Below, piece after piece: positions 45,047 through 61,734 of a DNA stretch of 64,000 bases (its first letter is position 1; each line of letters begins with the position of its first letter). The translations under genes were made by a program, and so were the position numbers. The stretch comes from an uncultured Eubacteriales bacterium (GTDB lineage: Bacteria > Bacillota > Clostridia > Christensenellales > UBA1242), in contig CASDSK010000043.1 of the NCBI GenBank assembly GCA_949283525.1, positions 1,113-65,112 of the forward strand, read 5' to 3'. Under the pieces are notes generated by a model. The model searched no databases. It had not been told where the DNA came from and saw nothing but the letters and a program-made list of their open reading frames with translations.

Positions 45047-45068
45047 TAAAAATCTTTTTTATCATTAT

Positions 45069-45269
45069 TTACTCTAATCCTAATAAATAATCAGTTGTAA
45101 CATTAAAATATTTAGCAATAATAATTAGTTGCTCGCTTTTGATATCTGCTTGCCCGTTCTCCCAGCGACAAATTGAAGAAGAACCGATTTGAATTTCTTT
45201 CGCTAGTGCTTGTATTGATAAATTTTTCTCTATTCTTAATTCTCTAAGTCTTTCTCCAAAAATATTCAT
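45069..45269 (-). CDS. XRE-family HTH regulator (module 2)
   Basis: MNIFGERLRELRIEKNLSIQALAKEIQIGSSSICRWENG...TDYLLGLE. I prefer the ATG at 45269 to the longer track ORF. Confidence 0.8.
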   Translation of the reverse strand: MNIFGERLRELRIEKNLSIQALAKEIQIGSSSICRWENGQADIKSEQLIIIAKYFNVTTDYLLGLE

Positions 45270-45313
45270 AATTATACCTTTTTTACATTTTATCCCATAA
45301 TAGGAATAAAATC

Positions 45314-45343
45314 TTGACAATCCCTAATTCGGGATGATATAAT
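45314..45343 (+). promoter_or_regulatory. consensus sigma-70 promoter with a different spacer palindrome (module 2)
   Basis: TTGACA (45314-45319), 18 nt, TATAAT (45338-45343). The spacer holds ATCCC-TAATTC-GGGAT (45320-45335). Confidence 0.6.
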
Positions 45344-45364
45344 TTATGTATTAAGTGTGATATT

Positions 45365-45574
45365 ATGAATAAATCTATAAATACTACTAAAATATATAAT
45401 TTTTTACAAAAAAATAAATTATCTTATAATAAATTCGCTAAAATGTGTTGTATTAGCCCTAAAACTCTTAAAAAAATCTTGTGCGATGATAATTATTTTA
45501 ATATGGTTGCCCTTTTTAAAATTTCAAGAATTATGAATGTAACGATAATAGATTTAATTAAAAAAAACTTATAG
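45365..45574 (+). CDS. small Cro-like HTH protein (module 2)
   Basis: 69 aa. The core is identical to the module-1 protein; the N- and C-terminal ends differ. Confidence 0.6.
   Translation: MNKSINTTKIYNFLQKNKLSYNKFAKMCCISPKTLKKILCDDNYFNMVALFKISRIMNVTIIDLIKKNL
45406..45540 (+). repeat. 135-bp repeat, copy 2
   Basis: See copy 1. Offset is 522 bp. Confidence 0.9.
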
Positions 45575-45608
45575 AGAACTTATGCTAAACTCTCTTATAA
45601 GTTTTTTT
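45561..45608. terminator. bidirectional terminator between the HTH gene and rnj
   Basis: AAAAAAACTTATAGAG-loop-CTCTTATAAGTTTTTTT. Confidence 0.6.
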
Positions 45609-47664
45609 ATTTAACATCAAAAACTACTGTTAATACTGTTGGATTTCTTTTTGTTTTCTTATTAAAAAAAGTAGTTAATGCTTTTCTTAAATTTTGTTTT
45701 AGAACTTGTACATCAACATTTTTGATATCACTTTTTGTAATTGTTTCTTTGACGTACTGCCTTGCTTCTTCGACTAATTGTGATGCTTCAGAAGAATAAA
45801 TTAAACCACGAGTTATGATTTCTGGGCCATTTTTTATGACACCCTTTTTCCTATCTATTGCTACACAAGTAACACATAAGCCTTCTTCACTTAAGTTAAG
45901 TCTATCCTTAAGTACAGAACTATCAATTTCTCCTACTCCTAATCCATCAATAAGCCTTGCACCAGATTTGACTTTACCTGATTCCTTAAATAAATCTTTA
46001 TTAATTTCAAAACAGTCGCCAATTTCTGCAATTTTCACATTGCTTTCATACATACCTAATAGCAATGCCAAATCTTTATGATGTTTTAAATGCTTATACT
46101 CTCCGTGAATAGGTATAAAGTATTTAGGGTTTAATAATTGATGAATTTGTTTAATCTCTTCATATTGTGCGTGTCCTGAAACGTGCACAGGCATAAGATA
46201 TTCGTATATTACATCTGCACCCTTTTTAAATAATGCATTAATTGTATTGTTAACTGCCCTTTCGTTCCCCGGTATTGGCGAACTTGATAGAATAAAACAA
46301 TCGTTTTGTGTAACTTCTACTTTATTAAAATCTCCGTTAGCAATTCTAGTTAAAGCACTCATAGGTTCGCCTTGACTTCCCGTTGTTATTATACACAACT
46401 CTCCATCTGGATAATTAGCAATTCTATCTATATCTATAACGTTGTCAGTATTATAATGAAGTTCATTTAATCTAGCAGCAACTTCCATATTCTTTATCAT
46501 ACTTCTTCCAGAGAACGCCACACGCCTTCCGTATTTTTCTGCTACATTAGTTATCTGTTGTATCCTATGAACATTACTAGCAAAAGTAGCAATAAAAATT
46601 CTCTTTCCAATATTTTCTGCGAAAATTGCATTCAAACTTTCCCCTACTTTGCTTTCTGACATTGAATGACCTGCTTTCTCTACATTAGTGCTTTCACACA
46701 TCAAAAGTAATACACCATTTTTTCCTATTTCTTCAATACGTTTTAAATCTGTAGTTAAGCCGTCAACAGGTTGTAAATCTATCTTAAAGTCACCTGTATG
46801 AAAAACTACACCAACAGGAGTTGTAATTGAAAGTGCAAAAGCACCTACTATACTATGATTGACGTGCAAAAATTCCACTTTGAAGCAACCTAATTCAATA
46901 ACGTCGTGTGGTTTAACAACTTCATATTTCGCTTTCACCTTAGAGTGTTCTCTAAGTTTATTTTGTACTAATGCTAAAGTTAATTTACTTCCATATATAG
47001 GACAATGTATTTCATTTAATGTGTATGGCAATCCTCCAATATGGTCTTCGTGCCCGTGCGTTAAAATTATACCTCTAACTCTATCTTTGTTTTCTACCAA
47101 ATAACTAATATCTGGCACAACTACATCTATCCCCGGCATTTCTTCGGTCGGAAAACTTAATCCGGCATCTATTACAATTATGTCCTGACCATATTCTAGG
47201 ACTGTCATATTTTTACCAATCTCACCAACTCCACCCAAAAACATTACCTTAAGATTGTTCTCATCTCGCTCTACAAAGTATTCTGGATTATCTAAATCTT
47301 TATCGTTTGTTTTTTGAAAAACTGGAGGTTTAACCCTTTCTGCTTTTGGTCTGCTAACATCCTCATTATTAAAATATCTAATGTTTTTTGTAGGCTTTTT
47401 TTCTTTATTCAAAGAGTTACTCTTTTTTGATTCTATAATGATTTTACATTTTGGTTGTTCATTTATAACTTGGCTATTTTTTTTGACACTCTTAGTATTA
47501 ACCTTTTTTGAACTATCTTCAATCATTTTTTTTGTTATTTTAATTTCTTTTTTCTGTTGTATAGGTTTTTCAGTTTTTGTACGATTTCTCGCACTTATTT
47601 CTTTGACTATAGTGTCATAATTTGTATTCTTATCTATTTTCTCATTTCCCTTATTCATTTTCAC
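45607..47664 (-). CDS. rnj: ribonuclease J with a Lys-rich ~135-aa N-terminal extension
   Basis: Metallo-beta-lactamase THGHEDHIGG, beta-CASP region, HVSGHA. Confidence 0.9.
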   Translation of the reverse strand: MKMNKGNEKIDKNTNYDTIVKEISARNRTKTEKPIQQKKEIKITKKMIEDSSKKVNTKSVKKNSQVINEQPKCKIIIESKKSNSLNKEKKPTKNIRYFNNEDVSRPKAERVKPPVFQKTNDKDLDNPEYFVERDENNLKVMFLGGVGEIGKNMTVLEYGQDIIVIDAGLSFPTEEMPGIDVVVPDISYLVENKDRVRGIILTHGHEDHIGGLPYTLNEIHCPIYGSKLTLALVQNKLREHSKVKAKYEVVKPHDVIELGCFKVEFLHVNHSIVGAFALSITTPVGVVFHTGDFKIDLQPVDGLTTDLKRIEEIGKNGVLLLMCESTNVEKAGHSMSESKVGESLNAIFAENIGKRIFIATFASNVHRIQQITNVAEKYGRRVAFSGRSMIKNMEVAARLNELHYNTDNVIDIDRIANYPDGELCIITTGSQGEPMSALTRIANGDFNKVEVTQNDCFILSSSPIPGNERAVNNTINALFKKGADVIYEYLMPVHVSGHAQYEEIKQIHQLLNPKYFIPIHGEYKHLKHHKDLALLLGMYESNVKIAEIGDCFEINKDLFKESGKVKSGARLIDGLGVGEIDSSVLKDRLNLSEEGLCVTCVAIDRKKGVIKNGPEIITRGLIYSSEASQLVEEARQYVKETITKSDIKNVDVQVLKQNLRKALTTFFNKKTKRNPTVLTVVFDVK

Positions 47665-47750: not shown

Positions 47751-48695
47751 TTAAATTACAAATTTAGCATCTTCTACAGAATCTTGTTCTGCAAATTCTT
47801 TTGAATTAATAATCGTATTTGAATCAATATAATAACGCATACCTTGTGATTCGTAATATACTACCATATTAAATATGTTATTCATTATAATAGTAGCAGG
47901 TAAGGTTATCAAAAGTGCTACACCAAAAGTATATCTAGCACAAACAAAGTTTATAACTAAAGCAATTAAAACAAACATTATACTGTTTGACCAAGTTCTA
48001 TAGAATCTCTTGCTCACAATTTTGAATCCGTTATTAAGTGCATTGAAAGTACGACAATCATGTAAACACAAATAAGGCGTGAAACATACGAATATCGTAT
48101 TTTGTATACTAAGCACAATTAAAACAATAAAAATAAATAACATAGGTGATAATATTGCCCATATTGAATTTAAAGTCATTAGATTTAACACATAATAACC
48201 ACAAACTAAAATAATTGCCCAAAATGGAAGTTTAACAAAAAATAAAACTATACCTTGTTTTAATGAACGCCAAAAATTTCTTAAATATGCGCCACAGAAA
48301 CCAAATTTTGATAAATTTGACATATGACCTTTGATTACATCACAACAAGGTAGTTGTGCCATATTTATAAATACGCTTAACAAAAATATTGCTATTCCAA
48401 CGCCAATAAAGTTCAGTGCTAAATTGTCTATATTTAATATAATTATATCCAAACAATTATTTATTAATGCAACAATTTCTCTGCTAAATTCTACAGTATT
48501 TAAAGCGACCATAGATGCCCAAAAATCGCTTAATTCTTCAAAAAAATTCGCATCTTTTAAGGTAGTAAATATGTCTATACCAAATGCAAATATTATACCA
48601 CCAAAAATTGTTAATATGATAAGTTTGTATGCTAAATTTTTCCACACTAACGAAAAGTTCGTTCCTAATAAACGGAACGCATTTCTTAATACCAT
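47751..48695 (-). CDS. polytopic membrane protein, unknown function
   Basis: 314 aa with about 6-7 hydrophobic helices. Confidence 0.5.
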   Translation of the reverse strand: MVLRNAFRLLGTNFSLVWKNLAYKLIILTIFGGIIFAFGIDIFTTLKDANFFEELSDFWASMVALNTVEFSREIVALINNCLDIIILNIDNLALNFIGVGIAIFLLSVFINMAQLPCCDVIKGHMSNLSKFGFCGAYLRNFWRSLKQGIVLFFVKLPFWAIILVCGYYVLNLMTLNSIWAILSPMLFIFIVLIVLSIQNTIFVCFTPYLCLHDCRTFNALNNGFKIVSKRFYRTWSNSIMFVLIALVINFVCARYTFGVALLITLPATIIMNNIFNMVVYYESQGMRYYIDSNTIINSKEFAEQDSVEDAKFVI

Positions 48696-48920: not shown

Positions 48921-48943
48921 TATATATTCACTAAACGTGAAAT

Positions 48944-48975
48944 AAAACAAGCCACGAATGCTCGTGGCTTGTTTT
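48944..48975 (-). terminator. strong terminator closing the phage-like operon
   Basis: AAAACAAGCCACGA-ATGC-TCGTGGCTTGTTTT, 14-bp perfect arms, overlapping the holin stop codon. Confidence 0.8.
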
Positions 48976-49315
48976 ATTGTTTTTTTCTATCGTTTTTAAG
49001 TTCTTCAATAATTGTGTCTAAATCAATTTCGTTTTCATCTAATTCTTCTTTATTTGTATAAATTTGATTTTCTTCATTTTCAACATTGGTTTCGTCATTA
49101 TCAGCATTTTTGGAAGTATCAACAAAATCATAATTGTCCTTTTGTACAAACCCTAGTACAACCAAAATTCCTAATATCGCCATAATTATATCATTAATTA
49201 TAGCATCGTTAATATTAAAATTAAATGCCTTAGAAAGTGTATTTAATAATATAATAACTGCCATTGATAATGCTACCCAAAAATTGTAATGTTTCATTCT
49301 GTCTAGTAATTTCAT
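48974..49315 (-). CDS. holin-like protein (SPP1/XhlB-type, two TM) with an acidic tail
   Basis: MKLLDRMKHYNFWVALSMAVIILLNTL...IIMAILGILVVLGFV. The ATG at 49315 follows GGGGGAG. The track start at 49339 is TTG. Confidence 0.5.
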   Translation of the reverse strand: MKLLDRMKHYNFWVALSMAVIILLNTLSKAFNFNINDAIINDIIMAILGILVVLGFVQKDNYDFVDTSKNADNDETNVENEENQIYTNKEELDENEIDLDTIIEELKNDRKKQ

Positions 49316-49331
49316 TAACTCCCCCTTTTTT

Positions 49332-49631
49332 TTATGCAACTTCAGCTTTAAATTTCTTAGATTTAATTAATTTTGTTGGTGCTAAAGGTAAAACTTTATT
49401 TTTTATAATTTTAATATCCGTTTTTATGTCTTCAATATCATTTCGAACACACTTTAAGTCATCTTCCACATTACATAGATGATTAAGCCCGTTAGACAAT
49501 TTATCTAATGTTTCCTGATATTTTTTTTCTCTTTTTGAACTATCTTTAAGTTCATACATTAGTAATCCCAAAAACATAACTGCAAATATGCCATTACTGA
49601 TTGCTAGATTAATAATTTCATCCCACATCAT
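49332..49631 (-). CDS. BhlA/UviB-family holin-like protein
   Basis: 99 aa. N-terminal TM NGIFAVMFLGLLMY followed by ELKDSSKREKKYQETL, as in BhlA/UviB. Confidence 0.55.
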   Translation of the reverse strand: MMWDEIINLAISNGIFAVMFLGLLMYELKDSSKREKKYQETLDKLSNGLNHLCNVEDDLKCVRNDIEDIKTDIKIIKNKVLPLAPTKLIKSKKFKAEVA

Positions 49632-50822
49632 TTATTGTCTTTGTTGAGTTTTGTATAAATAATAAGAATAATTATTACCTAGCAAATCTCGAATGTAACT
49701 ATTGTTTTGAAGTTCATTTAGTGCATCAGCCTTAGATAATGAATTAAGATATTCGTCAATAACTTGTGCATATGCATTATTGCGCATACTGTCAATTATG
49801 CTTTGATTTTCGCCGTATTTAATTAAGTTGTCAAGATAATCTTCTTGCGTTTTATTATTGCTTTCTATCACTGATTTTCTATACTCGGCTTCAATCTCTG
49901 CAATTTTATTATTATACTCAGTTATTTCATCATTTCTATCTTGAATTTCTTGTTGTAACTGAGAAATTTTATCATTTAACTTTAGAGCATATTCAATATC
50001 AAAGTCTTTGATTGCTTGTTCTCTTTCATTATTTAAGTTTGCTATTTCTTGATTTAATTCATTAATTTCTGTGCTTAATTGAGTATCTATTTCCATAAGT
50101 TTTGATATTTTATCATTGTCAAAAGCATTTAAATTATTTATCACTATACTAGAACGTTGTAAACCTCTTTTTAGTGCATCATTTTCAGCCTTTCTTTTAG
50201 CATCTTCGTAATAACTTTCCAATTGTGCCTTTTGTGTGTTAGCAGAATTAACTAAACTTTCTTCTTTACCATCCAAAGCATTTAAACTATTTTCTAACTT
50301 TGAATTAATAGAACTCATTTGAGCATCTTTATAATCTTTTAGCGAATTTTCTGCTTCAGTTTTTAATTCTTCTTCACTTTTTGTAATGTAATCTTTTTTT
50401 GTAAGGTTCAAATCTGGACTTAATTCTTCGCCCTTTTCTGGTTTAACGTCATATTGATTTTTAATTTCTTCAATTTTGTCTTGTAAATTCTCATAAGCAC
50501 TTTTTTCTTCATTATCTTGTACTTTTTGTGATTGCACTTTAACGATTTCATTTTTTTGTGAATCTTGCGTTTTAGGTTTAACATTATTTACAGTTGTTTC
50601 AGTGGTGTCGTTATTTTTAATAGGCTTTTCACTTGACATAACTTTTTGTTCGTTTTGAATATTGGTTTCCTTAACTTTATTATTTTCTTCATCATTAGAC
50701 GAGAAAATTTTATTCCAATTGTTATTGGCTTTCTCTATAACCTTTGGCGAAACTTCGTTATTTTTCTTTTTCTTTTTTTCCTCTTTTAACAAGTCTTCTT
50801 CGCTAAAATTAAATGTTGCCAT
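49632..50822 (-). CDS. coiled-coil structural-position protein (needle/fibre or ejection protein candidate)
   Basis: The ATG at 50822 lies 7 nt after AAGGAG. About 396 aa. Long heptad-rich E/K/N/Q stretches. Confidence 0.45.
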   Translation of the reverse strand: MATFNFSEEDLLKEEKKKKKNNEVSPKVIEKANNNWNKIFSSNDEENNKVKETNIQNEQKVMSSEKPIKNNDTTETTVNNVKPKTQDSQKNEIVKVQSQKVQDNEEKSAYENLQDKIEEIKNQYDVKPEKGEELSPDLNLTKKDYITKSEEELKTEAENSLKDYKDAQMSSINSKLENSLNALDGKEESLVNSANTQKAQLESYYEDAKRKAENDALKRGLQRSSIVINNLNAFDNDKISKLMEIDTQLSTEINELNQEIANLNNEREQAIKDFDIEYALKLNDKISQLQQEIQDRNDEITEYNNKIAEIEAEYRKSVIESNNKTQEDYLDNLIKYGENQSIIDSMRNNAYAQVIDEYLNSLSKADALNELQNNSYIRDLLGNNYSYYLYKTQQRQ

Positions 50823-50904
50823 ACTTATTCTCCTTATTTTATTTTTTTTATATAAATTTTTTTTCAATTCCCACTTAATAATTTCATTCATTAAAATATA
50901 ATAA

Positions 50905-52392
50905 TTAATCTAAGACTTCTATTTGTATAGTGGGATTTGAAATATGTAGCATCTCATTTGAAGAAAATTCTACACTAATTTTTGTGCCTACAACATTACA
51001 CAAAATAGTTTGTGTTTTATTGCTAGGCAAAATTGTTAAAGTTTGTGATTCGTTTTCACTTCTTATTAGAACTGTAAGTTTATTTTGTGTTTGTAATGTG
51101 ACAGACTTAACAACCTTAGTTTTGGGCGTGCCCAAATCGCTTAATGGTGATTGCCATAACTTAGTTAATTTGTCCCCAAAAAGATTACCGTCTTCACTTA
51201 ATTGCCCAATTTTATTACTATTTTGACCATTAAATAAAAATGCAATTTTGCTTACTTTATCGTGATATAGAACACACATATTACAAACATCTATGCCTCT
51301 AATTAAATTAATTTTTTGCGTTTCTAAATCAAACTCTACTAAAACATTATTCCTGTAACCCTCTTCTAACTCACAACCAATTTTTTTATCGTCGTCGAAA
51401 TCTATTCTAGTAGCCAAATAATATTTATTATTAAAGTAACAAGCACAAGCATATTGCATCATTTCTTTGTTTATTAGTCTATTAATATCAAAATCGTATT
51501 TATACAGACTTCCACCTGTACAATAATGCAAGCCATTACTTGTTAATAAAATTATTCTATCTCCACATAATACTGCAGTATTAGCGTATATTTTATTGCT
51601 TGATAAATTTAGGTGAGTTATGCTAAATTCACTTTGGTCACCATAAGCAGATAACCTTGAAATGCCATACTCTCTTATGATATAAACATAATCGTTAAAA
51701 CTTATAACCTTATTTATATAACCCCGCTCATCTACTAATTGAATAAAACCACCTGCTTGGCTTGTTTCTTCCCAATTTGATATATCAAAATCTTGGCTAA
51801 AGCGTATTTCATTTTTTTTGTCGCTAGAACTAGCAAACAATCTTTCATAATGACTACACATCGAAGATAAATGAATTGCTTTATCCGAACTAACAGGCGT
51901 TGCAGTTCCATTCCAAAAATACATACTATCTAGAGGACTACAGATGACTGCTGTTTCTAATCCGTTATATACATAAGTTAAAATAGTAGGTTTCGCTTCT
52001 AATGTAATATCAGACTTCATAAATGTATTTATTGGTCCACATAAAAATGTGTAATATAATTGTTTATCATCACAATACAACAATAAAATATCTTGCACTC
52101 GTGCCTTATCATCTGCTATCTTAAAACACCACAAACCTAAAGGTTTTGTGTCTGCAGGTAATTGATATATAATTGTTTCATCTTCAAAAACGCCGTGTGG
52201 TACTTCTAATTCTGCTATACCATATCCACTTCTCAAAGATTTGTCGTCTAATTTAACATTATAGGCTGTTTTCGCGTAGTTCATTTGTAATAAATTTTCG
52301 TCTATTTCTGTATTTATACCACGACTAAAATCAGATAAATTATAGGTGTATGTTTTAGGGGAATATGTTTGTAAATTCTTTTTGTAATACAT
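50905..52392 (-). CDS. phage structural-position protein (tail hub/nozzle candidate, by position only)
   Basis: 495 aa with beta-rich composition. No motif I recognise. Confidence 0.4.
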   Translation of the reverse strand: MYYKKNLQTYSPKTYTYNLSDFSRGINTEIDENLLQMNYAKTAYNVKLDDKSLRSGYGIAELEVPHGVFEDETIIYQLPADTKPLGLWCFKIADDKARVQDILLLYCDDKQLYYTFLCGPINTFMKSDITLEAKPTILTYVYNGLETAVICSPLDSMYFWNGTATPVSSDKAIHLSSMCSHYERLFASSSDKKNEIRFSQDFDISNWEETSQAGGFIQLVDERGYINKVISFNDYVYIIREYGISRLSAYGDQSEFSITHLNLSSNKIYANTAVLCGDRIILLTSNGLHYCTGGSLYKYDFDINRLINKEMMQYACACYFNNKYYLATRIDFDDDKKIGCELEEGYRNNVLVEFDLETQKINLIRGIDVCNMCVLYHDKVSKIAFLFNGQNSNKIGQLSEDGNLFGDKLTKLWQSPLSDLGTPKTKVVKSVTLQTQNKLTVLIRSENESQTLTILPSNKTQTILCNVVGTKISVEFSSNEMLHISNPTIQIEVLD

Positions 52393-52398
52393 TTAGTT

Positions 52399-52968
52399 TT
52401 ACATCCATAACCTAGATTTAAGATACATACGTTTAGTAGGTATTTTCGCACTCTCAATGCAATCTTTATATCTTCTATCATATATAGAAGCCTCGTTTAA
52501 TTTTCCCCTAATTAAACAAAATTCTGAAACTACACCCAAAGCCACCATTCTTTCAGTAACACCCAAATCACTACACTCGACTTCGTCATTTACACTTTGT
52601 GCTAAGTTAGGAAGATAACTATACCTAACAATTATTTCTTTTGTGCTTTCATTCAAGCGAACATATTTTGAATAAACTTCATATTTTAATATATTTCTAT
52701 TAGTGTCAGTAATAGTGTATAATCTGCTAATGTCTTTGTCTAAATCATCAAAATAAAAACAATTTTCATTAAGATTTACTTTTTCTTCTATTACAAGTGG
52801 AAAATAATCACAACACAATTCTTGATAAACTTCATTAAAACAATACAATAAAATGTCAAGTAATTTCTTGGAATTTTCATCTAAGTTATCTACATTAGAC
52901 ATATCCAAAAGTTCATCAATGCCTAACATAGTGGATGCCGACTTAATAATGTTTTTTACATTTAACAT
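52399..52968 (-). CDS. phage structural-position protein (head-tail adaptor candidate, by position only)
   Basis: 189 aa, third ORF downstream of the capsid gene (after the 101-aa ORF). Confidence 0.4.
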   Translation of the reverse strand: MLNVKNIIKSASTMLGIDELLDMSNVDNLDENSKKLLDILLYCFNEVYQELCCDYFPLVIEEKVNLNENCFYFDDLDKDISRLYTITDTNRNILKYEVYSKYVRLNESTKEIIVRYSYLPNLAQSVNDEVECSDLGVTERMVALGVVSEFCLIRGKLNEASIYDRRYKDCIESAKIPTKRMYLKSRLWM

Positions 52969-52977
52969 TTTGTCCTC

Positions 52978-53283
52978 CTAAATTTCAACATTTTGCATAA
53001 TTTTATCAAATAATTTTGAATTTTCATTTTTTTCTAAATTTTGATTATCTAATTCCATTTGTTTAATTAATTTCTCAAAATTTTCTTTACGAGTCATATA
53101 AACTTTTCTTAATAATCTTTCATCTAGTGGTTTATCCCAAGTAACCTCAACTTTTTCATTAAGGCCATATGTTTTAACCACTTCAAATCTGTGTTTTTTG
53201 TGATTTCTATAAACTTTATATAAATAATCTATACTTTTAATTCTGTTTACAATATCTAAAACATCGTCTTTAATTTCAGTCAT
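52978..53283 (-). CDS. small phage protein
   Basis: The ATG at 53283 lies 4 nt after AGGAG. 101 aa. The track start at 53316 is TTG. Confidence 0.4.
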   Translation of the reverse strand: MTEIKDDVLDIVNRIKSIDYLYKVYRNHKKHRFEVVKTYGLNEKVEVTWDKPLDERLLRKVYMTRKENFEKLIKQMELDNQNLEKNENSKLFDKIMQNVEI

Positions 53284-53343
53284 AAAACTCCTTTTTTGAA
53301 AATTACCATATACCAATTTCTTGATATATGGTAATTCTTAATA

Positions 53344-54531
53344 TTATTCTACAGGTATATTGATTAAAGCACCTTGTCCAGCAGGATGATCACAAATAAG
53401 TTCTGCGTATTTAACTAATGTTGCAGTATATACTGGTTTACCAGCAACTTGTTTTAAAACCTTACCGTTTTCACCTTCAAGCCAACGCCAATCACAGAGT
53501 TGATGCAATGTAAAGTCTTTTGTATTTAACATATACATTTCTCCGTCCCTGACAAATCTATCAGAAATTAAAGGTATTCCGTTAAAACTAATTGCTTTAT
53601 AACCACCTTCTAATTGCATAACATCAATATTTGTTCTAAAAGAATTTAAATATTCTTGATATTTTCTTTTAACTGATGAAGAACATACTATGAAATCTAT
53701 TTCACTGCCATAATATTCATTTAGTTCGTCAACCATTTTTTGCATAACAATATCAGTTAATTCACTAATAGAGTCATTTCTCAAAGGATTCATAAAACTG
53801 TAATTGTTTCTGTCAAGTCCATATAATTCAGAATTATCTCCAGCAAATATTTTGCCAAGTCCTGTAATTTCCTTATTATAAGAATTTTGAACAGTTAATA
53901 CTATATTAGAATCTTCGCCATCTGTTTGACAAAATTCTTCAACATTTTTGTCAAAATAAACTATTTTACCATTTCTATCTATAGAAGTAATTCTAGCAGT
54001 TGCTACAGTTGTTCCAATAGTAGCAAATTTTGAAATGTCTACTACCATACCTTCCATTAAATTTTTAACAGAGTCTACAATACAACTATTGTTAACGCCT
54101 GTATTTCTTGAACCAAGTGCAAGAAGTCCAGAACCATCACCATATAACATTCTACCAAAATTAAATTGACTTGCCTTAACTAGCCCTTCCATTTCAGCAT
54201 TCAAAAGGTTTACAAATGCACCTGCTGAATTGCTTGAAGCACGAATTGCTTTATCACTTAATTCAATAGTCCCAAATAAGTTTTTGAGAGTTGATGTAAA
54301 TGTAATGTAATTGTTTTGTGCAGAAGTAGGCAAACTTCCATCTTCATCACCTGCTCCTATACCACCATTAATTCCAACTGGTGCTAATTTTTTTACTTCT
54401 TTTCCCCATACATCTGCAGTTGATTGCTTTATTTTATTAAATAAGGGATTTGTTTTAGTATTTAATTGATTTGATACTACACCTAAATACAAAGTTTTTA
54501 GTGCGTTTTCAGCCGTTTCTAAAGTAACCAT
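53344..54531 (-). CDS. major capsid protein (HK97-fold type)
   Basis: 395 aa, immediately after the scaffold gene. The sequence resembles phage major capsid families (..LSDKAIRASS..., GGYKAISFNGIPLISDRF...). Confidence 0.75.
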   Translation of the reverse strand: MVTLETAENALKTLYLGVVSNQLNTKTNPLFNKIKQSTADVWGKEVKKLAPVGINGGIGAGDEDGSLPTSAQNNYITFTSTLKNLFGTIELSDKAIRASSNSAGAFVNLLNAEMEGLVKASQFNFGRMLYGDGSGLLALGSRNTGVNNSCIVDSVKNLMEGMVVDISKFATIGTTVATARITSIDRNGKIVYFDKNVEEFCQTDGEDSNIVLTVQNSYNKEITGLGKIFAGDNSELYGLDRNNYSFMNPLRNDSISELTDIVMQKMVDELNEYYGSEIDFIVCSSSVKRKYQEYLNSFRTNIDVMQLEGGYKAISFNGIPLISDRFVRDGEMYMLNTKDFTLHQLCDWRWLEGENGKVLKQVAGKPVYTATLVKYAELICDHPAGQGALINIPVE

Positions 54532-54590
54532 TTTTGTCTCCTTTAATTATTCTTTGCACTACCTTAAACGTTCGACTATGGATACTAGAT

Positions 54591-55403
54591 TTATTTATTT
54601 AGCCATTTATTCATTATATTTGCTACTTCGTCTAACGTTGTTGGCATATTTGGAGTGGATGCCACCATATTTGCTCCATAGGTGTTGACCATAAGTGGTG
54701 GCACTACTCCTTTTGTGCAATTATTGATATATTCATTTATAATTTTTTCTTTTATTATTTCATTAGAATTGACAAGTTCAAATAAATATTCATTAGAACT
54801 TAATTTTTTTTCATTATCTTCCACTCTATCTTTCATAACATCATAAACAGCCAATGTTAGCCCAAATTTATCATTAATGAATTTTTTATCGTCTACAAAT
54901 TTTTGTGCTATTTTTTGTATTAAATCTTGGTCTTGATTATGTATTTTAGAATATTCTTCAAACTTATCAATAACTTTATAGTCATTTATTTCATTACTAA
55001 CATTATCATTACTATTACTTTCATCTGTAATGTCTAAATGTGTAGTTTTTGAATTGTTAAAGTTCATAACGCGTTTCAAATTAGCAAGTTCTTGACTTTT
55101 ACGCGTAAATTCAGCCTGCAAAGATTTGTATGCGTTTTCTAGCATTTCTACGCTATCGAACTTCCCTAATATGTGGTTGTTTTGTAAATTATCTTCCCAA
55201 AGAGTATCTTGCTCCACATCTGTCGCTATAGAATTATCATTGGATGCTTGTATACTTTTGTCATCTACCTTATTTATTTCTACATTATCTTCGACTTTTA
55301 TTGTTTTAACCTTCTCAAGTCTCGCTTTAGGTTCTTCATTCTCAAAATTCACGTTAGGTTCTATGCGGTCGCTTTTGACGATTGTCGCATCAATATTATC
55401 CAT
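54591..55403 (-). CDS. capsid scaffolding protein
   Basis: 270 aa, acidic. GKFDSVEMLENAYKSLQAEF motif is typical of scaffold proteins. Lies between portal and capsid. Confidence 0.6.
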   Translation of the reverse strand: MDNIDATIVKSDRIEPNVNFENEEPKARLEKVKTIKVEDNVEINKVDDKSIQASNDNSIATDVEQDTLWEDNLQNNHILGKFDSVEMLENAYKSLQAEFTRKSQELANLKRVMNFNNSKTTHLDITDESNSNDNVSNEINDYKVIDKFEEYSKIHNQDQDLIQKIAQKFVDDKKFINDKFGLTLAVYDVMKDRVEDNEKKLSSNEYLFELVNSNEIIKEKIINEYINNCTKGVVPPLMVNTYGANMVASTPNMPTTLDEVANIMNKWLNK

Positions 55404-55412
55404 AATATCCTC

Positions 55413-57296
55413 CTATACTATTGTTAAGTTGTTTTGGGTCAATTTGTCTTTATGGCTTTGTATATGCTTTAACAACATTTCTTTAACATTTTGATGTTCT
55501 TTATTGCTATCATCAATTGTATCAGTTAACAAAAATGCAGTATGTTCTACAACGTGTATATTATGGTCATCTATGTCTTCAACCATCGGTTCTTTATTAT
55601 TATTTAAACATTCAATATTTTCTTTTTGTGCTTTATTCCTTTGTAGCGTAGAAATATCTTGCCCTTGCTCCCAAATACCATATCCTAATAACTCTAAAAT
55701 TTTTGAACGCATACGATTATTAATATTTCCATTTTCGTCAGCCAATAAGCCAGCATTTAATAATTCAAAAATCATACTTCTTCTCTGTGCTATGGTTTCC
55801 GTCAATTCATTTTCCGTTTCAAAGACTATGTCTTCACTGCTTATATCACTTGAATTAAAATAAAATAATTCTACTTCACGATTGTCGCCACCTATAATTC
55901 TACCTATGCGTTTTGTTTGAACAAATTGTTTATAAAGCCTTAATATATGCTTACCTACATTTTTTATTGCAGAACGTATTTCTTCTGCACTTGTAGTTAA
56001 TTTAGCATCATCTTGTTCTATGAGTAATTGTAAAGCAGTACCACTCATATTAGCATATGTAGATATGGCACTTGTTAAATCTGACAAGCCAGATAAAATA
56101 GTCATTTGATTCATTATTCTATCTTCTTCATTAGAGAAATCACTTGGTAGTCCACCTGAAGCCATAAATATAGGTGGAGTCGCACCTTGCCTATAAACTA
56201 ATATTTTACCAGGGCGTATTCCTTCTTCTTCAAGATTATCAGTGTCTACACTTCCGTCTTCAACTGCCAAAATGCCTTGTGCAATTCTATTCATAAATTC
56301 ATATTTTCTATTTTTTGTAGCATTTAATGCCCTTTGTAAAGGTATTATTCTATTTATAATACAAGTCCCAAAGAAATTATTTGATTGCTCTTGAGAAATT
56401 TGTCTAACAAATGGTATACTTCTTTTTTTGTCTTCACCATTTTCAAAAGGTAAATCTCCATTATACAATAATTTATTGCCAGCAATAATGATAAGTCTTC
56501 CATTTTTGTATAGACTACTAGGTCTTTCATAGTATTCTAAAACAATAGCGTGATTTTTCTTAGTTGTTTTGATAATGCTTGTATTTAATGAAGTATAATT
56601 ATACGCACCAACATTCTCAATAGAATCACAGGATATTACATCAATATCTTCACCTTTGACATCTACTCCCCAATTTTGTTTTATAACATCTACGTGATAT
56701 GCTCTAGCGTGTATTATAGAACGACAATCTTCTATGCTTTCACATGCAATATTGTCTGGATAAATTTCAAATGGTGGACAAACGCTAATATCTACATCGC
56801 CTTCTTTGATACTTTCACCTTTATCGTTAATTCCTATCACACGGCCACTATCACTATTCCATACAATTTTATAAAATGCAGTACCACACAATTCACTCCA
56901 TTTAGTCGCTTTGGCTATAATTCTTGATAAATTGCATTTATGGTCAATAGAATTAAGTATACTTTTACTAACTTTAGCAGATTTAATGTCCTTTTCTTCG
57001 CTAGTGCTAGGTAAAACAGTCATTTGTGGTCTAACACGTGCCAATTTAGCAAGTCTACTTTCATACATAGATGCCAAATAATTATATACTTGATTTTCTT
57101 GCCATTCATATTCTTTTGTAATGCCACAAGTATTGCCAAAATTATCTACAGTGCAGAATTGATTACCCACAACAAAATTCGCATTAATTTGCCACTGACG
57201 TTCGAAAGGTTTCCTTTCTACTTTGCGTTGTTCAAAATCTTCAAGAATATCAGCGACTAATTGTTTTTCATCAATATTAATTTTCTTTTTCATCAT
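55413..57296 (-). CDS. portal protein
   Basis: 627 aa, located between terminase and scaffold. Size and position are typical of a portal. Confidence 0.65.
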   Translation of the reverse strand: MMKKKINIDEKQLVADILEDFEQRKVERKPFERQWQINANFVVGNQFCTVDNFGNTCGITKEYEWQENQVYNYLASMYESRLAKLARVRPQMTVLPSTSEEKDIKSAKVSKSILNSIDHKCNLSRIIAKATKWSELCGTAFYKIVWNSDSGRVIGINDKGESIKEGDVDISVCPPFEIYPDNIACESIEDCRSIIHARAYHVDVIKQNWGVDVKGEDIDVISCDSIENVGAYNYTSLNTSIIKTTKKNHAIVLEYYERPSSLYKNGRLIIIAGNKLLYNGDLPFENGEDKKRSIPFVRQISQEQSNNFFGTCIINRIIPLQRALNATKNRKYEFMNRIAQGILAVEDGSVDTDNLEEEGIRPGKILVYRQGATPPIFMASGGLPSDFSNEEDRIMNQMTILSGLSDLTSAISTYANMSGTALQLLIEQDDAKLTTSAEEIRSAIKNVGKHILRLYKQFVQTKRIGRIIGGDNREVELFYFNSSDISSEDIVFETENELTETIAQRRSMIFELLNAGLLADENGNINNRMRSKILELLGYGIWEQGQDISTLQRNKAQKENIECLNNNKEPMVEDIDDHNIHVVEHTAFLLTDTIDDSNKEHQNVKEMLLKHIQSHKDKLTQNNLTIV

Positions 57297-57480
57297 TTTT
57301 CACCTTATTTGACTTAGATTTAACGCTTTTGTAAGCCTTAGTCATTTCCTCTAAACATTGTGAACATATACACATTTGCGTTTTGATATCATTTTCATTA
57401 TACAAAACTGCATAATTAGCAATTCTTTTGCAACCTTTAATATCACATTGTCTTATAAATAATAACTTTTTAATAACCAT
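57277..57480 (-). CDS. small Cys4 zinc-ribbon-like protein
   Basis: 67 aa. C-x4-C ... C-x-C-x2-C (CDIKGC...CICSQC). Overlaps the portal start by 20 nt. Confidence 0.4.
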   Translation of the reverse strand: MVIKKLLFIRQCDIKGCKRIANYAVLYNENDIKTQMCICSQCLEEMTKAYKSVKSKSNKVKNDEKEN

Positions 57481-57482
57481 AA

Positions 57483-57767
57483 TTATTTCTCCTTTTTCTC
57501 TAAATTCAAAAGTTGTTTTAGTAATCTTTGTTTCTCTTTCTCAAGTTCTTCATCACTTAACTCTTCGTACAAAGTATCTCCAAACAATAATTTATATGCC
57601 TCTACGTCAGGTGGTAAATATTTTGTAGTAATTCTTTTTTTTTGTAATTGCAACTGTCCTAAATTTTCATCTACCACATATTCTTCAGTTATTTCGATAG
57701 ATTTAAACCCTTTGGCTAAACTATAAATAGCGTCTTGGGCTTTGTCTAAATTTGTTTTACTAGGCAT
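57483..57767 (-). CDS. small phage protein (possible displaced small-terminase-like or accessory protein)
   Basis: 94 aa. Overlaps the terL stop by 8 nt. Confidence 0.35.
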   Translation of the reverse strand: MPSKTNLDKAQDAIYSLAKGFKSIEITEEYVVDENLGQLQLQKKRITTKYLPPDVEAYKLLFGDTLYEELSDEELEKEKQRLLKQLLNLEKKEK

Positions 57768-59193
57768 TTTGCCACCTCATCTGTTTTAATTTTCTATATA
57801 ATCTTTCCTTATCTTTTGTTATTTCACTTTTGACTGTTGGCAGTCTAGGTATGTCTGGTTTAGAACACAAATAATATCTTAATTCATCTAAGGCGTGGTC
57901 ATCTTTTTTGATTGGAGTATCACCATTTGACCACCAGTAACGTTTAATTTCGTCAATTAAATGTACGCAAGTCCTAAATATAAATAAATGTGATTTACCG
58001 TTAGCATCTTTAAGATAAGATTTTACTCTATTTATTCCTGTAAATAATTCTTTATTGACTTTGGGGTTAACTAAAATTCCATTGTCATAAAAAAGTTCAA
58101 CCACATTTTTTTCGCTTGCTAAAGTTCTAGCAGTTGCAGCACTGTCAATTAAACTTTCAAGCATACCATTACTATTTCTTTTCCAATTAAGTGATTTGGC
58201 AATTTTATTTATTTCTTTTGAATGAGTCGCAACATCAAGATTACTTGCATAATGCTCTGCTACAACATATACATTACCATCAAAGTCTACTGCGTAAAAA
58301 TGACAAGATAATGGGTTATGTAATCCGGGGTCAATAGAAATATTGTCCTGCCATTGATAAGGAATTTCAAAAGGGTCAATAACGTGTATATTTTCATTAA
58401 ATTCCGTATACACAAGCCCTTCATTACATTGAAATCGGCCATACCTTCTTGACTCTAGTTCTTTTTTGTCAAGCGTTTTTGAAAGTTCATCAATAGATTT
58501 TTTGTCTAAATACGGGTTGTCTGCCCATTCCATAAATTCACACCAAATGCTATCATCATAAGTACTCGCTTTATATATTTTCTCATACACCCAAGTAAGT
58601 CCTTTAAGTGGTGTCATAGTGCCGAACATATCTCCATTTTTATCAAATACTCTCATTTTACATTCGTCATAAATATCCTCAGGTGGTTCTTCGTCAAACC
58701 ATACAAAATCTAATGATGCACCTTGAAACTTTTCTCTTCCTTGGTCGCAAGACTTAAAACCTATTGTGCTTGTCCCACCTAATTCATTTCGCACTATTAT
58801 TTGGTCAATAACTCCACGAGAAGGCGAAGTTTTTTTGCCCTGTTGCATTGTGATATCTATAATATCTCGTGGGCTTAAATAATGTAGAATTTTTTTTTGT
58901 GCTACATCTCTTTGAACCTGCGTAGACAAGGAAACTACCCAACCATTAACATTTGTTTTATTTTTTCTATAAGGGTGTATGCCACGTGCTAGATATACAC
59001 ATTCCACTGCACCACATTCAGTTTTGCCACTTCTATTACCACCAAACACCCAACGATTTTTGCTAGTGTTTTTGTGAAATGCTATTTGTTTTAAATGTAT
59101 TTTATCTACATTATAATATTTCAAAGCACTTTCACGATTTTTTAATTCTTTCTCAATATTTAATATATTTTTGACTATAGATTTTTCATTCAC
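57760..59193 (-). CDS. terL: terminase large subunit
   Basis: GTG start after GAGGA. Walker A GGNRSGKTE, Walker B DFVWFDEEPP, C-terminal nuclease-type region (DDHALDELRY). Confidence 0.85.
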   Translation of the reverse strand: MNEKSIVKNILNIEKELKNRESALKYYNVDKIHLKQIAFHKNTSKNRWVFGGNRSGKTECGAVECVYLARGIHPYRKNKTNVNGWVVSLSTQVQRDVAQKKILHYLSPRDIIDITMQQGKKTSPSRGVIDQIIVRNELGGTSTIGFKSCDQGREKFQGASLDFVWFDEEPPEDIYDECKMRVFDKNGDMFGTMTPLKGLTWVYEKIYKASTYDDSIWCEFMEWADNPYLDKKSIDELSKTLDKKELESRRYGRFQCNEGLVYTEFNENIHVIDPFEIPYQWQDNISIDPGLHNPLSCHFYAVDFDGNVYVVAEHYASNLDVATHSKEINKIAKSLNWKRNSNGMLESLIDSAATARTLASEKNVVELFYDNGILVNPKVNKELFTGINRVKSYLKDANGKSHLFIFRTCVHLIDEIKRYWWSNGDTPIKKDDHALDELRYYLCSKPDIPRLPTVKSEITKDKERLYRKLKQMRWQNA

Positions 59194-59337
59194 AATTTCC
59201 TCGCTTATATTTTCGACTTAAGTATACAAAATATTATTAAACTTATCATAAAATCTACAAACTTACCATAAATTAAAATTGTATTAAACATTTAAATAAT
59301 TTATAATTATCTTGGCAGTCAATGTATAAAGGTGATT

Positions 59338-59661
59338 ATGACAAAATTTATTTATTCATTTTTGTTACTGTTAATATTGCCAATAGCGATTCATTCAATC
59401 AAACTTTGTCCAACAACTTTAACGACTTATGAGGTCGTTGTAGAAAATAATGAACAAAAAGTTGAAGAAAATTATAAAACTTTAGGTCTAAAATTATATC
59501 TAATAGTTTTATTAATAACTATGCCAATATTGACAGTTGTACTTATTCTTATAATTCCTAAGAAAACTGACAATCTCCTTGCAGTCGATTTGAGCAAAAA
59601 AAAGAAAACAAAAATTAATTTAGGTTTAAAAAAATCTAAGTATGATGATGATAATTTATAA
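59338..59661 (+). CDS. small secreted/membrane protein on the opposite strand (moron-like)
   Basis: Signal-like FIYSFLLLLILPIAIHS plus a second TM LYLIVLLITMPILTVVLILII, and a basic tail. Confidence 0.45.
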   Translation: MTKFIYSFLLLLILPIAIHSIKLCPTTLTTYEVVVENNEQKVEENYKTLGLKLYLIVLLITMPILTVVLILIIPKKTDNLLAVDLSKKKKTKINLGLKKSKYDDDNL

Positions 59662-59669
59662 AAAACCTC

Positions 59670-60146
59670 CTAAATTGCAGTCTTATTCAATTTCTCGCTA
59701 TAATGCTCATAAGCTGTTTTTATGTAATTAATTTTATAAAAATCACAATTACAAAACTCTTCAAAATAAGAACTCTTCTCTAAATACGGTAAAATTTTTT
59801 TTGGCATTGACTGCACTAACCTATACGCCTGCATTTTGTTGATTTTAAGCATATCAGCAATGGCAGGTGTTTTTATTTTTTGCACAAAATATAAGTCGAA
59901 AATTTTTCTTTCCTTTTTGTCAAGTTTGTCTACAGCATTTGTTATTATTCTTTTGATGTTGTATAAAATACTCTTTGTTTCCATTAAATCAATAATATTG
60001 CTTGCTAATTTTTGAACACCACAATTAACATCAAGATAATAAGAATTTATCGCCTTATTTTGTATGCTATGATTAATATTAAAAATGAGATTGTCCAAGT
60101 CTTTGTATTTTTTTAGCATAGTATAAACCATAATTGTCTTGTCCAT
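59670..60146 (-). CDS. sigma-70 region-4-like / ArpU-RinA-type late-gene regulator (putative)
   Basis: 158 aa. LDKKERKIFDLYFVQKIKTPAIADMLKINKMQAYRLVQ resembles the sigma region 4 HTH. AGGAG RBS. Confidence 0.5.
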   Translation of the reverse strand: MDKTIMVYTMLKKYKDLDNLIFNINHSIQNKAINSYYLDVNCGVQKLASNIIDLMETKSILYNIKRIITNAVDKLDKKERKIFDLYFVQKIKTPAIADMLKINKMQAYRLVQSMPKKILPYLEKSSYFEEFCNCDFYKINYIKTAYEHYSEKLNKTAI

Positions 60147-60474: not shown

Positions 60475-61734
60475 TTATTCTAGAGTGAATTCTACTCCAC
60501 CTAAATGAATTGTATCCCCTACTTTAGCACCATTTTGATAGAGTGCGTCTTCTATTCCTTCTTCTTTGATACGTTTGTTAAAATAAGAAAAAGATTCATA
60601 ATCAAAAATATTAACGCCACGAATTATATTATCAATTAGGCTACCTTCTACTATAAATGAACCGTCGTCATCTCTTCTTATAGTATAAGTTAGTTCTTCT
60701 TTGGCATCAAAGTCAAATTCTTCTATTTGTTCTGGCTCGATTTTTGGTAAAGTTTTAAGCAATTCAAATACATTTTTGAATAGATTGTCAATACCTTTGT
60801 GAGTAAAAGCAGATATTTCTACACAAGGTGCTTTAACTTGCTTTTTGAAATTTTCAATTGGTTCTCTATTATCACCCAATATATCACACTTATTTAATGC
60901 TATTATTTGTGGTCTTTCTAATAATTTAGGAGAATATGAACCTAATTCATTATTAATTAAATTATAATCATCAATAGGATTTCTTCCCTCGCTTCCAGAA
61001 ATATCAACAACGTGCACAATTAATCTAGTACGTTCAATGTGTCTTAAAAATTCGTGGCCTAAACCTGCACCTTCACTAGCACCTTCTATTAAACCAGGGA
61101 TATCTGCCACTACGCAACTAGAATCATAATATTTAACTACCCCCAAATTTGGAGCCAAAGTGGTAAAGTGATAGTTGGCTATCTTTGGCTTAGCATCTGA
61201 AATAGCAGACAACAAAGTAGATTTACCAACATTAGGAAAGCCTACAAGTCCAACATCTGCAATTGTTTTTAATTCTAATATTACTTCTCTTTCTTTAGTA
61301 ATAATACCCTTTTGTGCAAAGTTTGGGGCTTGTCTTCGTGCTGTAGCAAAATTTTGGTTTCCTTTACCACCATTACCACCTTTTAATAAAGTAAACTTTT
61401 GACCTTCCTCAAACATATCAACAATAACTTTATTAGTTTCAGCATCAAGCACAACGCAACCACAAGGAACTTTAATTATTACATCTTTCCCGTCTGCTCC
61501 CGTACAGTGATTTTTTCCACCGTTTTCGCCATTACCTGCACGAAAATGTTTTTGAAATTTAAAGTCTACTAAGGTATTAACATCTCTATTAGCAATCAAA
61601 ATTATGTCGCCACCATTTCCACCATCGCCACCATCGGGGCCACCATTTTGTGTAAACTTATCTCTATAGAATGATACTATACCATCACCGCCATTACCGG
61701 CTTTAACAACAATTTTAGCCCTATCAATGAACAT
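60475..61734 (-). CDS. obg: GTPase Obg/CgtA
   Basis: Gly-rich Obg fold (GGDGGNGGD), G1 GFPNVGKST, DIPGLIEGAS, NKCD, and a C-terminal TGS-like domain. Confidence 0.95.
   Translation of the reverse strand: MFIDRAKIVVKAGNGGDGIVSFYRDKFTQNGGPDGGDGGNGGDIILIANRDVNTLVDFKFQKHFRAGNGENGGKNHCTGADGKDVIIKVPCGCVVLDAETNKVIVDMFEEGQKFTLLKGGNGGKGNQNFATARRQAPNFAQKGIITKEREVILELKTIADVGLVGFPNVGKSTLLSAISDAKPKIANYHFTTLAPNLGVVKYYDSSCVVADIPGLIEGASEGAGLGHEFLRHIERTRLIVHVVDISGSEGRNPIDDYNLINNELGSYSPKLLERPQIIALNKCDILGDNREPIENFKKQVKAPCVEISAFTHKGIDNLFKNVFELLKTLPKIEPEQIEEFDFDAKEELTYTIRRDDDGSFIVEGSLIDNIIRGVNIFDYESFSYFNKRIKEEGIEDALYQNGAKVGDTIHLGGVEFTLE

Follow-up and report, generated by a model that had tools for sequence, protein, structure and literature searches.

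A P22-like phage remnant beside rnj as a probable gene transfer agent-like element of uncultured gut Clostridia

A conserved phage-derived block beside rnj

Based on gene content, predicted structures and comparison of relatives, we propose a role for a phage-derived block in the chromosome of an uncultured Eubacteriales bacterium (GTDB Christensenellales; UBA1242). The window analysed here is a 64,000-nt stretch of contig CASDSK010000043.1 (assembly GCA_949283525.1), with a G+C content of about 28% and nearly all of its genes on the minus strand. The block occupies 48941-60146 of this window (minus strand, about 11 kb) and comprises 13 minus-strand genes and one divergent plus-strand gene, flanked upstream by obg (60475-61734) and on the other side by a membrane-protein gene (47751-48695) and rnj, the gene of RNase J (45607-47664). 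It is probably what remains of a P22-like, short-tailed phage that was domesticated long ago, kept by uncultured gut Clostridia as an element for particles of the gene transfer agent (GTA) type. Gene identities established by homology or fold, the want of genes for autonomy, synteny that extends across an order, purifying selection and co-divergence with a host gene are the observations that carry this proposal. A preliminary description of the stretch had offered a domesticated GTA-like short-tailed particle as one of several readings; our results support it, and none of the tests run to refute it went against it.

How far does the block extend beyond this one chromosome? A scan of one genome per GTDB species for the capsid gene confirmed relatives in at least 587 species-representative genomes. 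The capsid homologues form more than 6,455 clusters at 90%, many of them on contigs of 100-770 kb from uncultured Clostridia, and 291 clusters at the 50% level have E below 1e-30. Across 80 genome loci and 55 IMG/VR loci fetched for comparison, the compact block recurs as such, and not inside full-length prophages. The genes for a sigma-like protein and a divergent membrane protein stand at its head, followed by those for the large terminase (TerL), a protein resembling the small terminase (TerS), a small open reading frame (ORF), the portal and the scaffold; then come the capsid, a second small ORF, the adaptor, the nozzle and none to two variable genes of 300-800 aa; DUF7934, the holins, one or two polytopic membrane proteins, rnj, an O-methyltransferase and a peptidase U32 complete the order. 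The block usually lies beside the membrane-protein gene (mem314), rnj, the O-methyltransferase and the peptidase U32 gene, even where RNase J is only 45-57% identical to that of the window. Its upstream neighbour varies, and obg is adjacent only in the closest clade.

In the 22 genomes that have all four genes complete, mean p-distances are 0.38 for TerL, 0.34 for the capsid, 0.50 for the portal and 0.48 for RNase J, TerL and the capsid diverging more slowly than RNase J. Distances of the block follow those of RNase J (Mantel r 0.92, with 0 of 2000 permutations as high), which is the vertical inheritance under purifying selection that marks a GTA, here spanning no fewer than 22 genomes of deep divergence. 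In comparison with the nearest congeners, synonymous divergence (pS) is saturated at 0.58-0.87, and nonsynonymous divergence (pN) is 0.07 for the portal, 0.07 for TerL and 0.11 for the capsid, compared with 0.11-0.12 for Obg and RNase J; in the fastest genes of the block (nozzle, adaptor, holin_1, DUF7934 and scaffold) it reaches 0.17-0.25, and dN/dS is 0.03-0.27 where it can be computed. Reading frames are intact in 56 of the 57 evaluable genome loci for TerL, 62 of 66 for the portal and 80 of 80 for the capsid; at least two of the four flagged portals (L006 and L007) are alignment-end artefacts. Codon usage is host-like (relative synonymous codon usage r 0.984; third-position G+C 0.200 vs 0.192), and the closest capsids of isolated phages are only 24-28% identical. 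The argument of the preliminary description for selection rather than decay therefore holds, with pN (0.07-0.25) far below pS and frames intact almost everywhere. Because the block evolves as slowly as core genes, it is most likely domesticated and not a decaying prophage.

A further mark of a GTA is a structural and packaging cluster in the chromosome without genes for replication, integration or lysogeny, and this is what we find in the window and in the four relatives annotated with Pfam (L001, L002, L084 and L086), where no integrase, replication or repressor gene was detected. Pfam and PHROGs reveal no integrase, recombinase, replication protein, repressor, tape-measure protein, sheath, tube, baseplate, tailspike or endolysin in the block, families of long or contractile tails (sheath, tube, tape measure, baseplate) having been sought in all of its ORFs, and Pfam gives no integrase, replication, repressor, tailspike or endolysin family in the rest of the window. 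The absences of integrase, replication, tape-measure, sheath and endolysin genes listed earlier are thus borne out, and an integrase just outside the flanks, which would have pointed to a prophage, is not seen by Pfam within the window. At the other loci examined no integrase or replication gene adjoins an intact block, the Pfam check covering the four annotated loci together with ad hoc scans. No att-like direct repeats flank the block, where we see only imperfect, A/T-rich chance matches; no receptor-binding protein is recognised in block or window; and the 64-kb window holds nothing like an unlinked operon for fibre or receptor-binding protein and holin-endolysin.

Predicted parts of the particle and a proposed mechanism

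All 12 minus-strand ORFs of the preliminary description are present where it had placed them, and we now assign most of them to families or folds; coordinates in this section refer to the minus strand unless stated otherwise. TerL (477 aa, 57760-59193) matches Terminase_6N (4.4e-11) and phrog_2 (7e-26), which together with both Walker motifs bears out the large terminase; it is 56-89% identical among loci and shows a weak, sub-cut-off similarity to the terminase family of PBSX (TIGR01547, 1.5e-8). The motifs quoted earlier, GGNRSGKTE and DFVWFDEEPP for Walker A and B and GKFDSVEMLENAYKSLQAEF for the scaffold, are found in the translations. Where that description had reported no small terminase upstream of terL, a TerS-like gene does exist, downstream of it (94 aa, 57483-57767), its start overlapping the terL stop by the 8 nt described (57760-57767). 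In this family 11 of 17 members match phrog_309, 'terminase small subunit' (best 8.5e-7), and the window's own protein does so weakly (E 0.098, profile positions 198-240 of 319). A conserved motif, KVTTKxxPPDxxAxKxLLE, runs through the family; its profile finds no match among PDB sequences, Pfam gives noise only, and no helix-turn-helix (HTH) is detected. We read the protein as a putative remnant of TerS, missing the N-terminal domain for DNA recognition and placed, unusually, after terL. Next to it lies the gene of a Cys-rich (CxxC...CxxC) 67-aa protein (57277-57480), a family conserved at this position in many loci and without a match in Pfam and PHROGs, which overlaps the portal gene by 20 nt (57277-57296), as reported.

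The head proteins follow. The 627-aa portal (55413-57296), as named earlier, belongs to the P22_portal family (3.1e-28), with further matches to SU10_portal (1e-7) and phrog_156 (8.6e-41). Between portal and capsid, in the position of P22 gp8, lies a 270-aa protein (54591-55403) with no database match, so that its assignment as scaffold is positional; of the earlier claim, the quoted motif and the place stand, and a database match is wanting. Its family is kept but fast-evolving (56% identity where the capsid has 83%). The major capsid protein (395 aa, 53344-54531) has the HK97 fold inferred before and falls in a podovirus family, with matches to NCBIfam NF033394 capsid_maj_Podo (2e-79) and phrog_14242 (3.7e-56). 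A small head or neck protein of 101-112 aa (52978-53316), from a family conserved between the capsid and adaptor genes in the position of P22 orf69, has no significant match.

What closes the head? The preliminary description had placed adaptor, hub and needle or ejection proteins by gene position; for the first two the place is now supported by fold, and for the last large ORF it stays positional. The AlphaFold model of the 189-aa protein (52399-52968; pLDDT 86.7) resembles in Foldseek searches of the PDB the adaptors of KHP30 (7wmp_m, 9e-7) and Pa223 (9nwi_A, TM-score 0.70), and further those of N4, SU10, crAss001, VP1 and GP4. The 495-aa protein (50905-52392), modelled from a 30-sequence alignment, is all-beta (pLDDT 88.9, pTM 0.88) and best matches the Pa223 tail (9nwi_Y, 3.6e-22, TM-score 0.74), followed by VP1, GP4, SU10, P22 gp10, Sf6 gp8 and T7 gp12; predicted viral structures in BFVD labelled 'P22 Gp10, DNA-stabilising' match it as well. 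On these models the two are predicted to be the head-to-tail adaptor and a tail nozzle or hub of the P22 gp10 / T7 gp12 type, which is what their position had suggested, rather than fibres or lysins of the usual kind. The block's last large gene, conserved as such, encodes a helical DUF7934 coiled-coil protein (396-419 aa, 49632-50891; PF25588 5.9e-37), which in the window's clade carries a long low-complexity N-terminal extension. Its profile matches nothing in the PDB, and it is not similar to P22 gp26 (hhalign probability 0.1%); by its position it is probably a tail-tip, plug, needle or other virion protein. One 824-aa protein of a contig in the European Nucleotide Archive (P0232), a single cluster, is a read-through fusion of nozzle and DUF7934, which either hints, as weak 'Rosetta-stone' evidence, at a physical link or is an artefact of assembly or gene calling.

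At the head of the block the 158-aa protein (59670-60146) matches Sigma70_r4_2 (1.4e-3), phrog_1740 (5e-10), TIGR02937 (1.3e-7), RinA (TIGR01636, 8e-4) and the PBSX-type 'positive control sigma-like factor' NF005385 (0.012), the similarity to sigma-70 region 4 and RinA lying in its C-terminal half. A profile of 18 orthologues retrieves region 4 of SigF, SigW, SigL and FliA from the PDB (7e-7 to 4e-5) and no terminase, and the gene is kept at the block head in most loci. The sigma region-4/ArpU-like regulator proposed earlier is thereby supported, and we assign the protein to the RinA-ArpU-like late-gene activators. As a candidate for TerS it was rejected: it reads as a regulator because its profile fits sigma region 4 and RinA and not a terminase. 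Divergently, on the plus strand, lies the gene of a small membrane protein (109 aa, 59332-59661) without Pfam or PHROG match, which aligns to a family of 226-355-aa membrane proteins found at the same divergent position in 42 loci and carrying two 'GYV' repeat domains. The alignment covers the signal or transmembrane segment, the C-terminal transmembrane segment and the acidic 'DDxxL' tail; the window's clade has lost the 'GYV' ectodomain, its protein being a reduced member of the family. By this alignment the plus-strand gene inside the block belongs to it, from a conserved family paired with the regulator, and one may speculate that its product is a sensor or anti-activator. When the region upstream of terL was searched in the window (59194-59273) and 51 further loci, a TTTTGT(A/C)TA-like element lay some 10-45 nt before the terL start in 15 of 52 loci, compared with 2.6 +/- 1.5 in shuffled sequences. 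This modest enrichment makes it a candidate recognition site for the sigma-like activator, a lead and not a finding.

The block ends with the two holin-like genes described before. One encodes a BhlA-family holin (99 aa, 49332-49631) with one transmembrane segment and matches to Holin_BhlA (6.7e-13) and phrog_2429 (2.4e-14), the other a Phage_holin_1-family holin (113-121 aa, 48974-49339) with two such segments and matches to Phage_holin_1 (1.1e-4) and the holin family phrog_297 (5.7e-10). Given a TTG start at 49339, they overlap by 8 nt, as stated earlier. An intrinsic terminator (48941-48978) comes directly after the holin stop codon; it is real, as had been said, with a stem of 17 bp rather than 14 bp, including six G-C pairs, a 4-nt loop and a T-rich tail (five T in the eight bases after the stem).

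How might such a set of genes work? The sigma-region-4/RinA-like protein (59670-60146) would switch on a single operon of about 10.3 kb, from terL to the holins, and the divergently encoded membrane protein may gate this activation. A procapsid would be built from the portal, the scaffold-position protein and the capsid protein, and TerL, helped by the TerS-like remnant, would fill it by a headful mechanism. Because the remnant seems to lack a DNA-recognition domain, packaging should start without sequence specificity on host DNA. The adaptor and the nozzle, probably with DUF7934 as plug or tip, would then seal the portal and form a stub tail. The two holins could free the particles by lysing a subpopulation of cells, a step for which a muralytic enzyme would be needed from elsewhere, and released particles might finally deliver their DNA to recipients.

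Known systems and competing explanations

The closest parallel is FpGTA of Faecalibacterium prausnitzii, a 10.5-kb, ten-gene podovirus-like operon whose particles of about 40 nm hold 8.4-8.9 kb of host DNA, with fibre or receptor-binding and holin-endolysin genes in a second operon about 125 kb away, and which was termed the first podovirus-like GTA-like element (PMC12946183, Nat Commun 2026). Both elements sit in gut Clostridia as podovirus-like operons of about 10-11 kb without integrase or replication genes, are near-ubiquitous in their host clade, and encode TerL, a TerS-like protein without a DNA-binding domain (putatively so in the block), portal, a scaffold-position gene, capsid, small structural genes and a terminal coiled-coil protein (annotated as 'TolA' in FpGTA); in FpGTA, too, fibre and endolysin genes lie outside the main operon. 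They differ in the capsid, which by name belongs to the N4-gp56 family in FpGTA, whereas the block and ten relatives (two capsids encoded at loci and eight taken as representatives of distant clusters) have NF033394 capsid_maj_Podo as their sole match; in the scaffold position, held by a Prp-like protease in FpGTA and by an unrelated acidic protein here; and in the TerS-like gene, upstream of terL there and downstream of it in the block, which in addition has the sigma-like activator, its membrane partner and two holins. With capsids set apart by NCBIfam family names, the two were likely domesticated independently. The particles of FpGTA and the host DNA packaged in them are proven by experiment, whereas the block is known from its genes alone.

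The late operon of P22 is collinear with the block, from terL, portal, scaffold and coat through a small ORF, the gp4 adaptor and the gp10 hub to a coiled-coil protein at the position of gp26. The two have the portal family and the gp10 fold in common, and a head protease is absent from both. Of the traits of P22, we thus find the portal, a gp4-like adaptor and a gp10-like hub, and do not find a recognisable needle, the ejection proteins gp7, gp20 and gp16, the tailspike gp9, or genes for integrase, immunity, replication or endolysin; TerS is reduced to the 94-aa remnant after terL.

RcGTA of the Alphaproteobacteria is likewise a phage-derived head and packaging cluster, chromosomally fixed, vertically inherited and under purifying selection, with genes for lysis and attachment outside the main cluster. 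Its TerS has no DNA-binding specificity, as may hold for the TerS-like protein here; RcGTA is siphovirus-like, with tail tube and tape-measure genes and proteins unrelated to those of the block (the adaptor model against the RcGTA neck, 6tba and 6toa, is non-significant, with E above 0.2), and it is controlled by host CtrA and quorum sensing, whereas the block has its sigma-like factor in the cluster. PBSX of Bacillus subtilis, a domesticated Gram-positive element that packages host DNA, has late genes driven by the sigma-like Xpf, to whose type of NCBIfam model (NF005385, E 0.012) the regulator of the block is weakly similar; PBSX is a killer particle with a long contractile tail, whereas the block lacks sheath, tube and baseplate genes.

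Several points weigh against a GTA-like role. Neither block nor window contains an endolysin or a recognisable receptor-binding protein, and the window's clade is without the post-nozzle variable gene or genes of 300-800 aa present in most relatives, so its particles may be unable to adsorb. The TerS-like assignment depends on a short profile match, with E 0.098 for the window's protein and better values in 11 of 17 relatives. An activator encoded within the cluster is phage-like regulation, with any host control hypothetical, and whether a particle could hold the element's own 11 kb would depend on the size of the capsid. Particle, packaged DNA and transfer are all deduced from genes. The missing endolysin, the missing receptor-binding protein (felt most in the window's clade, without its post-nozzle variable genes), the short TerS match and this reliance on sequence are the weakest links.

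These gaps give room to a serious rival, improbable in our judgement though well worth weighing, namely that the domesticated particle has another job, as a PBSX-like killer or as a device for programmed lysis and DNA release (for example extracellular DNA of biofilms, or public goods), with packaging incidental and no delivery. Selection and vertical inheritance are seen, whereas delivery is presumed, and the FpGTA authors raise the same caveat for their own element (PMC12946183). The loss in the window's clade of the post-nozzle variable genes that could bind receptors fits such a device, as do the two holins conserved in the block, the BhlA-family one carrying the PHROG label 'bacteriocin production or immunity'. 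A strongly conserved terminase, portal, adaptor and nozzle would, however, be costly if DNA were neither packaged nor ejected; pN of TerL and portal is the lowest in the block and does not exceed the values for Obg and RNase J when the same pairs of genomes are compared, and neither a contractile tail nor any other known apparatus for killing is present. Decay fares far worse. The absence of many phage modules and the interruption of terL by inserted elements in a few relatives (L106, L132 and L140) might recall a recently decayed, functionless prophage remnant retained by chance, and this we consider refuted, its residual probability being negligible: the same reduced set survives intact across dozens of species with core proteins about 50% diverged, at nonsynonymous sites it has diverged no more than Obg and RNase J, and its codon usage is fully ameliorated.

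Might the element instead be mobile? Capsid-forming phage-inducible chromosomal islands (cf-PICIs) move with their own integrase, replication genes and att sites, have no tail genes and package themselves. A capsid-forming satellite of this kind, or a helper-dependent defective phage that borrows replication, fibre and lysis and packages itself, would suit the compact size (about 11 kb), the small chromosomal element's own capsid, portal and terminase genes with a RinA-like activator of the type found in phages and satellites, and the want of fibre and lysin genes in the block. We think it very unlikely, and this option of the preliminary description finds no support: Pfam gives no integrase, replication or primase, or excisionase gene in the window and the four annotated relatives, there are no att repeats, and a fixed chromosomal position with co-divergence with RNase J across deep host divergence is the opposite of patchy mobile islands. 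Unlike cf-PICIs, which are without tail genes, the block also encodes an adaptor and a nozzle, and its TerS-like protein appears to lack a DNA-recognition domain. Equally slight are the chances of minimal temperate podophages that integrate site-specifically beside rnj through host recombinases and co-speciate with their hosts. The constant downstream and varying upstream neighbour (obg only in the closest clade) is what such phages would leave, but no replication, immunity or recombination function accompanies an intact block in the copies examined, and the IMG/VR matches, mostly short contigs with the same block, include no circular or free form. To our knowledge, 11 kb is also far below the size of autonomous tailed phages other than those like phi29, which carry their own polymerase.

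What would a GTA-like element in these bacteria imply? We know of few described GTA lineages (RcGTA, BaGTA, VSH-1, Dd1, VTA, PBSX-like elements and, since 2026, FpGTA), and each new one sheds light on the domestication of viruses and on gene movement that needs neither plasmids nor phages. No paper describing the locus or DUF7934 was found in the full-text literature. At least 587 carrier species, with capsid and terminase more conserved than RNase J, point to a long-standing fitness role in little-studied gut Clostridia, and the block offers a minimal parts list that includes the DUF7934, TerS-remnant and membrane-partner families. GTA-like packaging has been observed in metagenome-assembled genomes of Christensenellaceae, with peaks at 4.1 and 7.1 kb in HGM11616 and at 6.3 kb in QANA01, no locus being identified (PMC12946183 Supplementary Data 1). 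These genomes carry no established link to the block, which is a concrete candidate locus for the packaging of 4-7 kb host fragments in Christensenellaceae viromes. As a more tentative picture, doubtful as a whole, the block may represent a podovirus-derived particle system that is inherited vertically throughout an order, arose independently of FpGTA and has its own pair of sigma-like activator and membrane sensor, among the oldest and most widespread Gram-positive gut domestications and conceivably the source of the Christensenellaceae packaging. In the window's clade, where the post-nozzle variable genes and the greater part of the sensor ectodomain are lost, the system might then have been turned from delivering DNA to another use, for example altruistic lysis or DNA release triggered by a signal.

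Distant relatives, interrupted terL genes and neighbouring genes

Of the 55 IMG/VR matches, nearly all show the block again, most being short contigs, and two carry rnj or an rnj-side neighbour (L132 has rnj). L145, a 44-kb viral contig with a capsid 30% identical and the same module order, is probably a distant true phage relative. L142 (IMGVR_UViG_2887785357_000001, 34.8 kb), whose dense ORFs on both strands suggest a high G+C content, has in order TerL, portal, a 405-aa ORF, capsid (37% identity), an adaptor-size ORF, nozzle, an 807-aa ORF, a DUF7934-like gene and a 704-aa ORF; because it has the same module order, the family reaches well beyond the low-GC clade. Several carriers (L014, L019, L023, L071 and L077) were deposited under names such as Corallococcus sp., Spirochaetales bacterium or Acidiphilium sp., and NCBI puts Candidatus Fimimonas in Myxococcaceae, all evident taxonomic mislabels; for the other genera named, NCBI taxonomy was uninformative or likewise mislabelled. 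We presume that the carriers belong to 'Christensenellales', an order-level placement taken from depositors' labels, which range from Christensenellaceae to wrong names, and from GTDB. Ten accessory proteins from relatives, among them products of post-nozzle genes (300-800 aa) and of the divergent membrane gene, a membrane protein of 273 aa and the product of an 839-aa gene lying upstream, have no accepted Pfam or PHROG match; a BRAP2 match of one of them fell below the gathering cut-off and was taken as chance.

terL is interrupted in a few relatives. At L132:3376-7263 two tandem large serine recombinases (Resolvase, Recombinase and Zn_ribbon; 510 and 536 aa), preceded by genes of phage tail-fibre type (Mtd_N), abut a C-terminal terL fragment. 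A pair of ORFs matching by size (520 and 536 aa) lies beside a gp58-like gene at L135:5867-9026, where no fragment of terL could be detected. At L140:5141-7187 a truncated terL adjoins an Amidase_2-SPOR lysin that belongs to another element, and two ORFs, one with a GLUG motif, lie within terL at L106:2559-6691. Other prophages may use the element's terL as their attachment site, possibly in a switch like skin or comK.

Between the block and rnj, the conserved neighbour mem314 (47751-48695, minus strand) encodes a 314-aa protein with six transmembrane segments and no family match in Pfam or PHROGs. It adjoins the block even where rnj is not adjacent (L074 and L083), and in the window it lies downstream of the terminator with a promoter-like site of its own; its membership in the block is uncertain. 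One or two polytopic proteins of six or seven transmembrane segments and without a family always occupy this interval (also at L019:14707-16496 and L081:14709-15530), with alike N-terminal and C-terminal motifs; they may be paralogues, and could be parts of the element that act, for example, in lysis or immunity.

The rest of the window, about 50 kb, is housekeeping by Pfam (dnaK operon, mfd, alanine racemase, cysS, feoB and others). Three disrupted genes had been reported there, of which one is confirmed, by an in-frame TAA at 38229-38231, the two adjacent ORF pairs that were checked being separate genes. The stop codon breaks a repeat-rich gene ('ADI..HG..V' repeats) at 37692-38520 on the minus strand, and in L090, a near-identical strain of a different sample, it is split alike into gene calls of 95 and 176 aa, so that it is either a pseudogene or a split gene. 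At 1522-7788 two very large adjacent genes, encoding 1048 aa without a Pfam match and 907 aa with DUF87/AAA_10/TraG-type P-loop domains, stand beside a PemK-family toxin gene and its small partner, and may represent a defence system or a conjugation-derived module. Finally, the O-methyltransferase gene and rnj are separated by four small HTH genes of the XRE family, which alternate in orientation (44554-45574) and could be local regulators; L086 has two such genes, and most relatives have rnj directly beside the methyltransferase gene.

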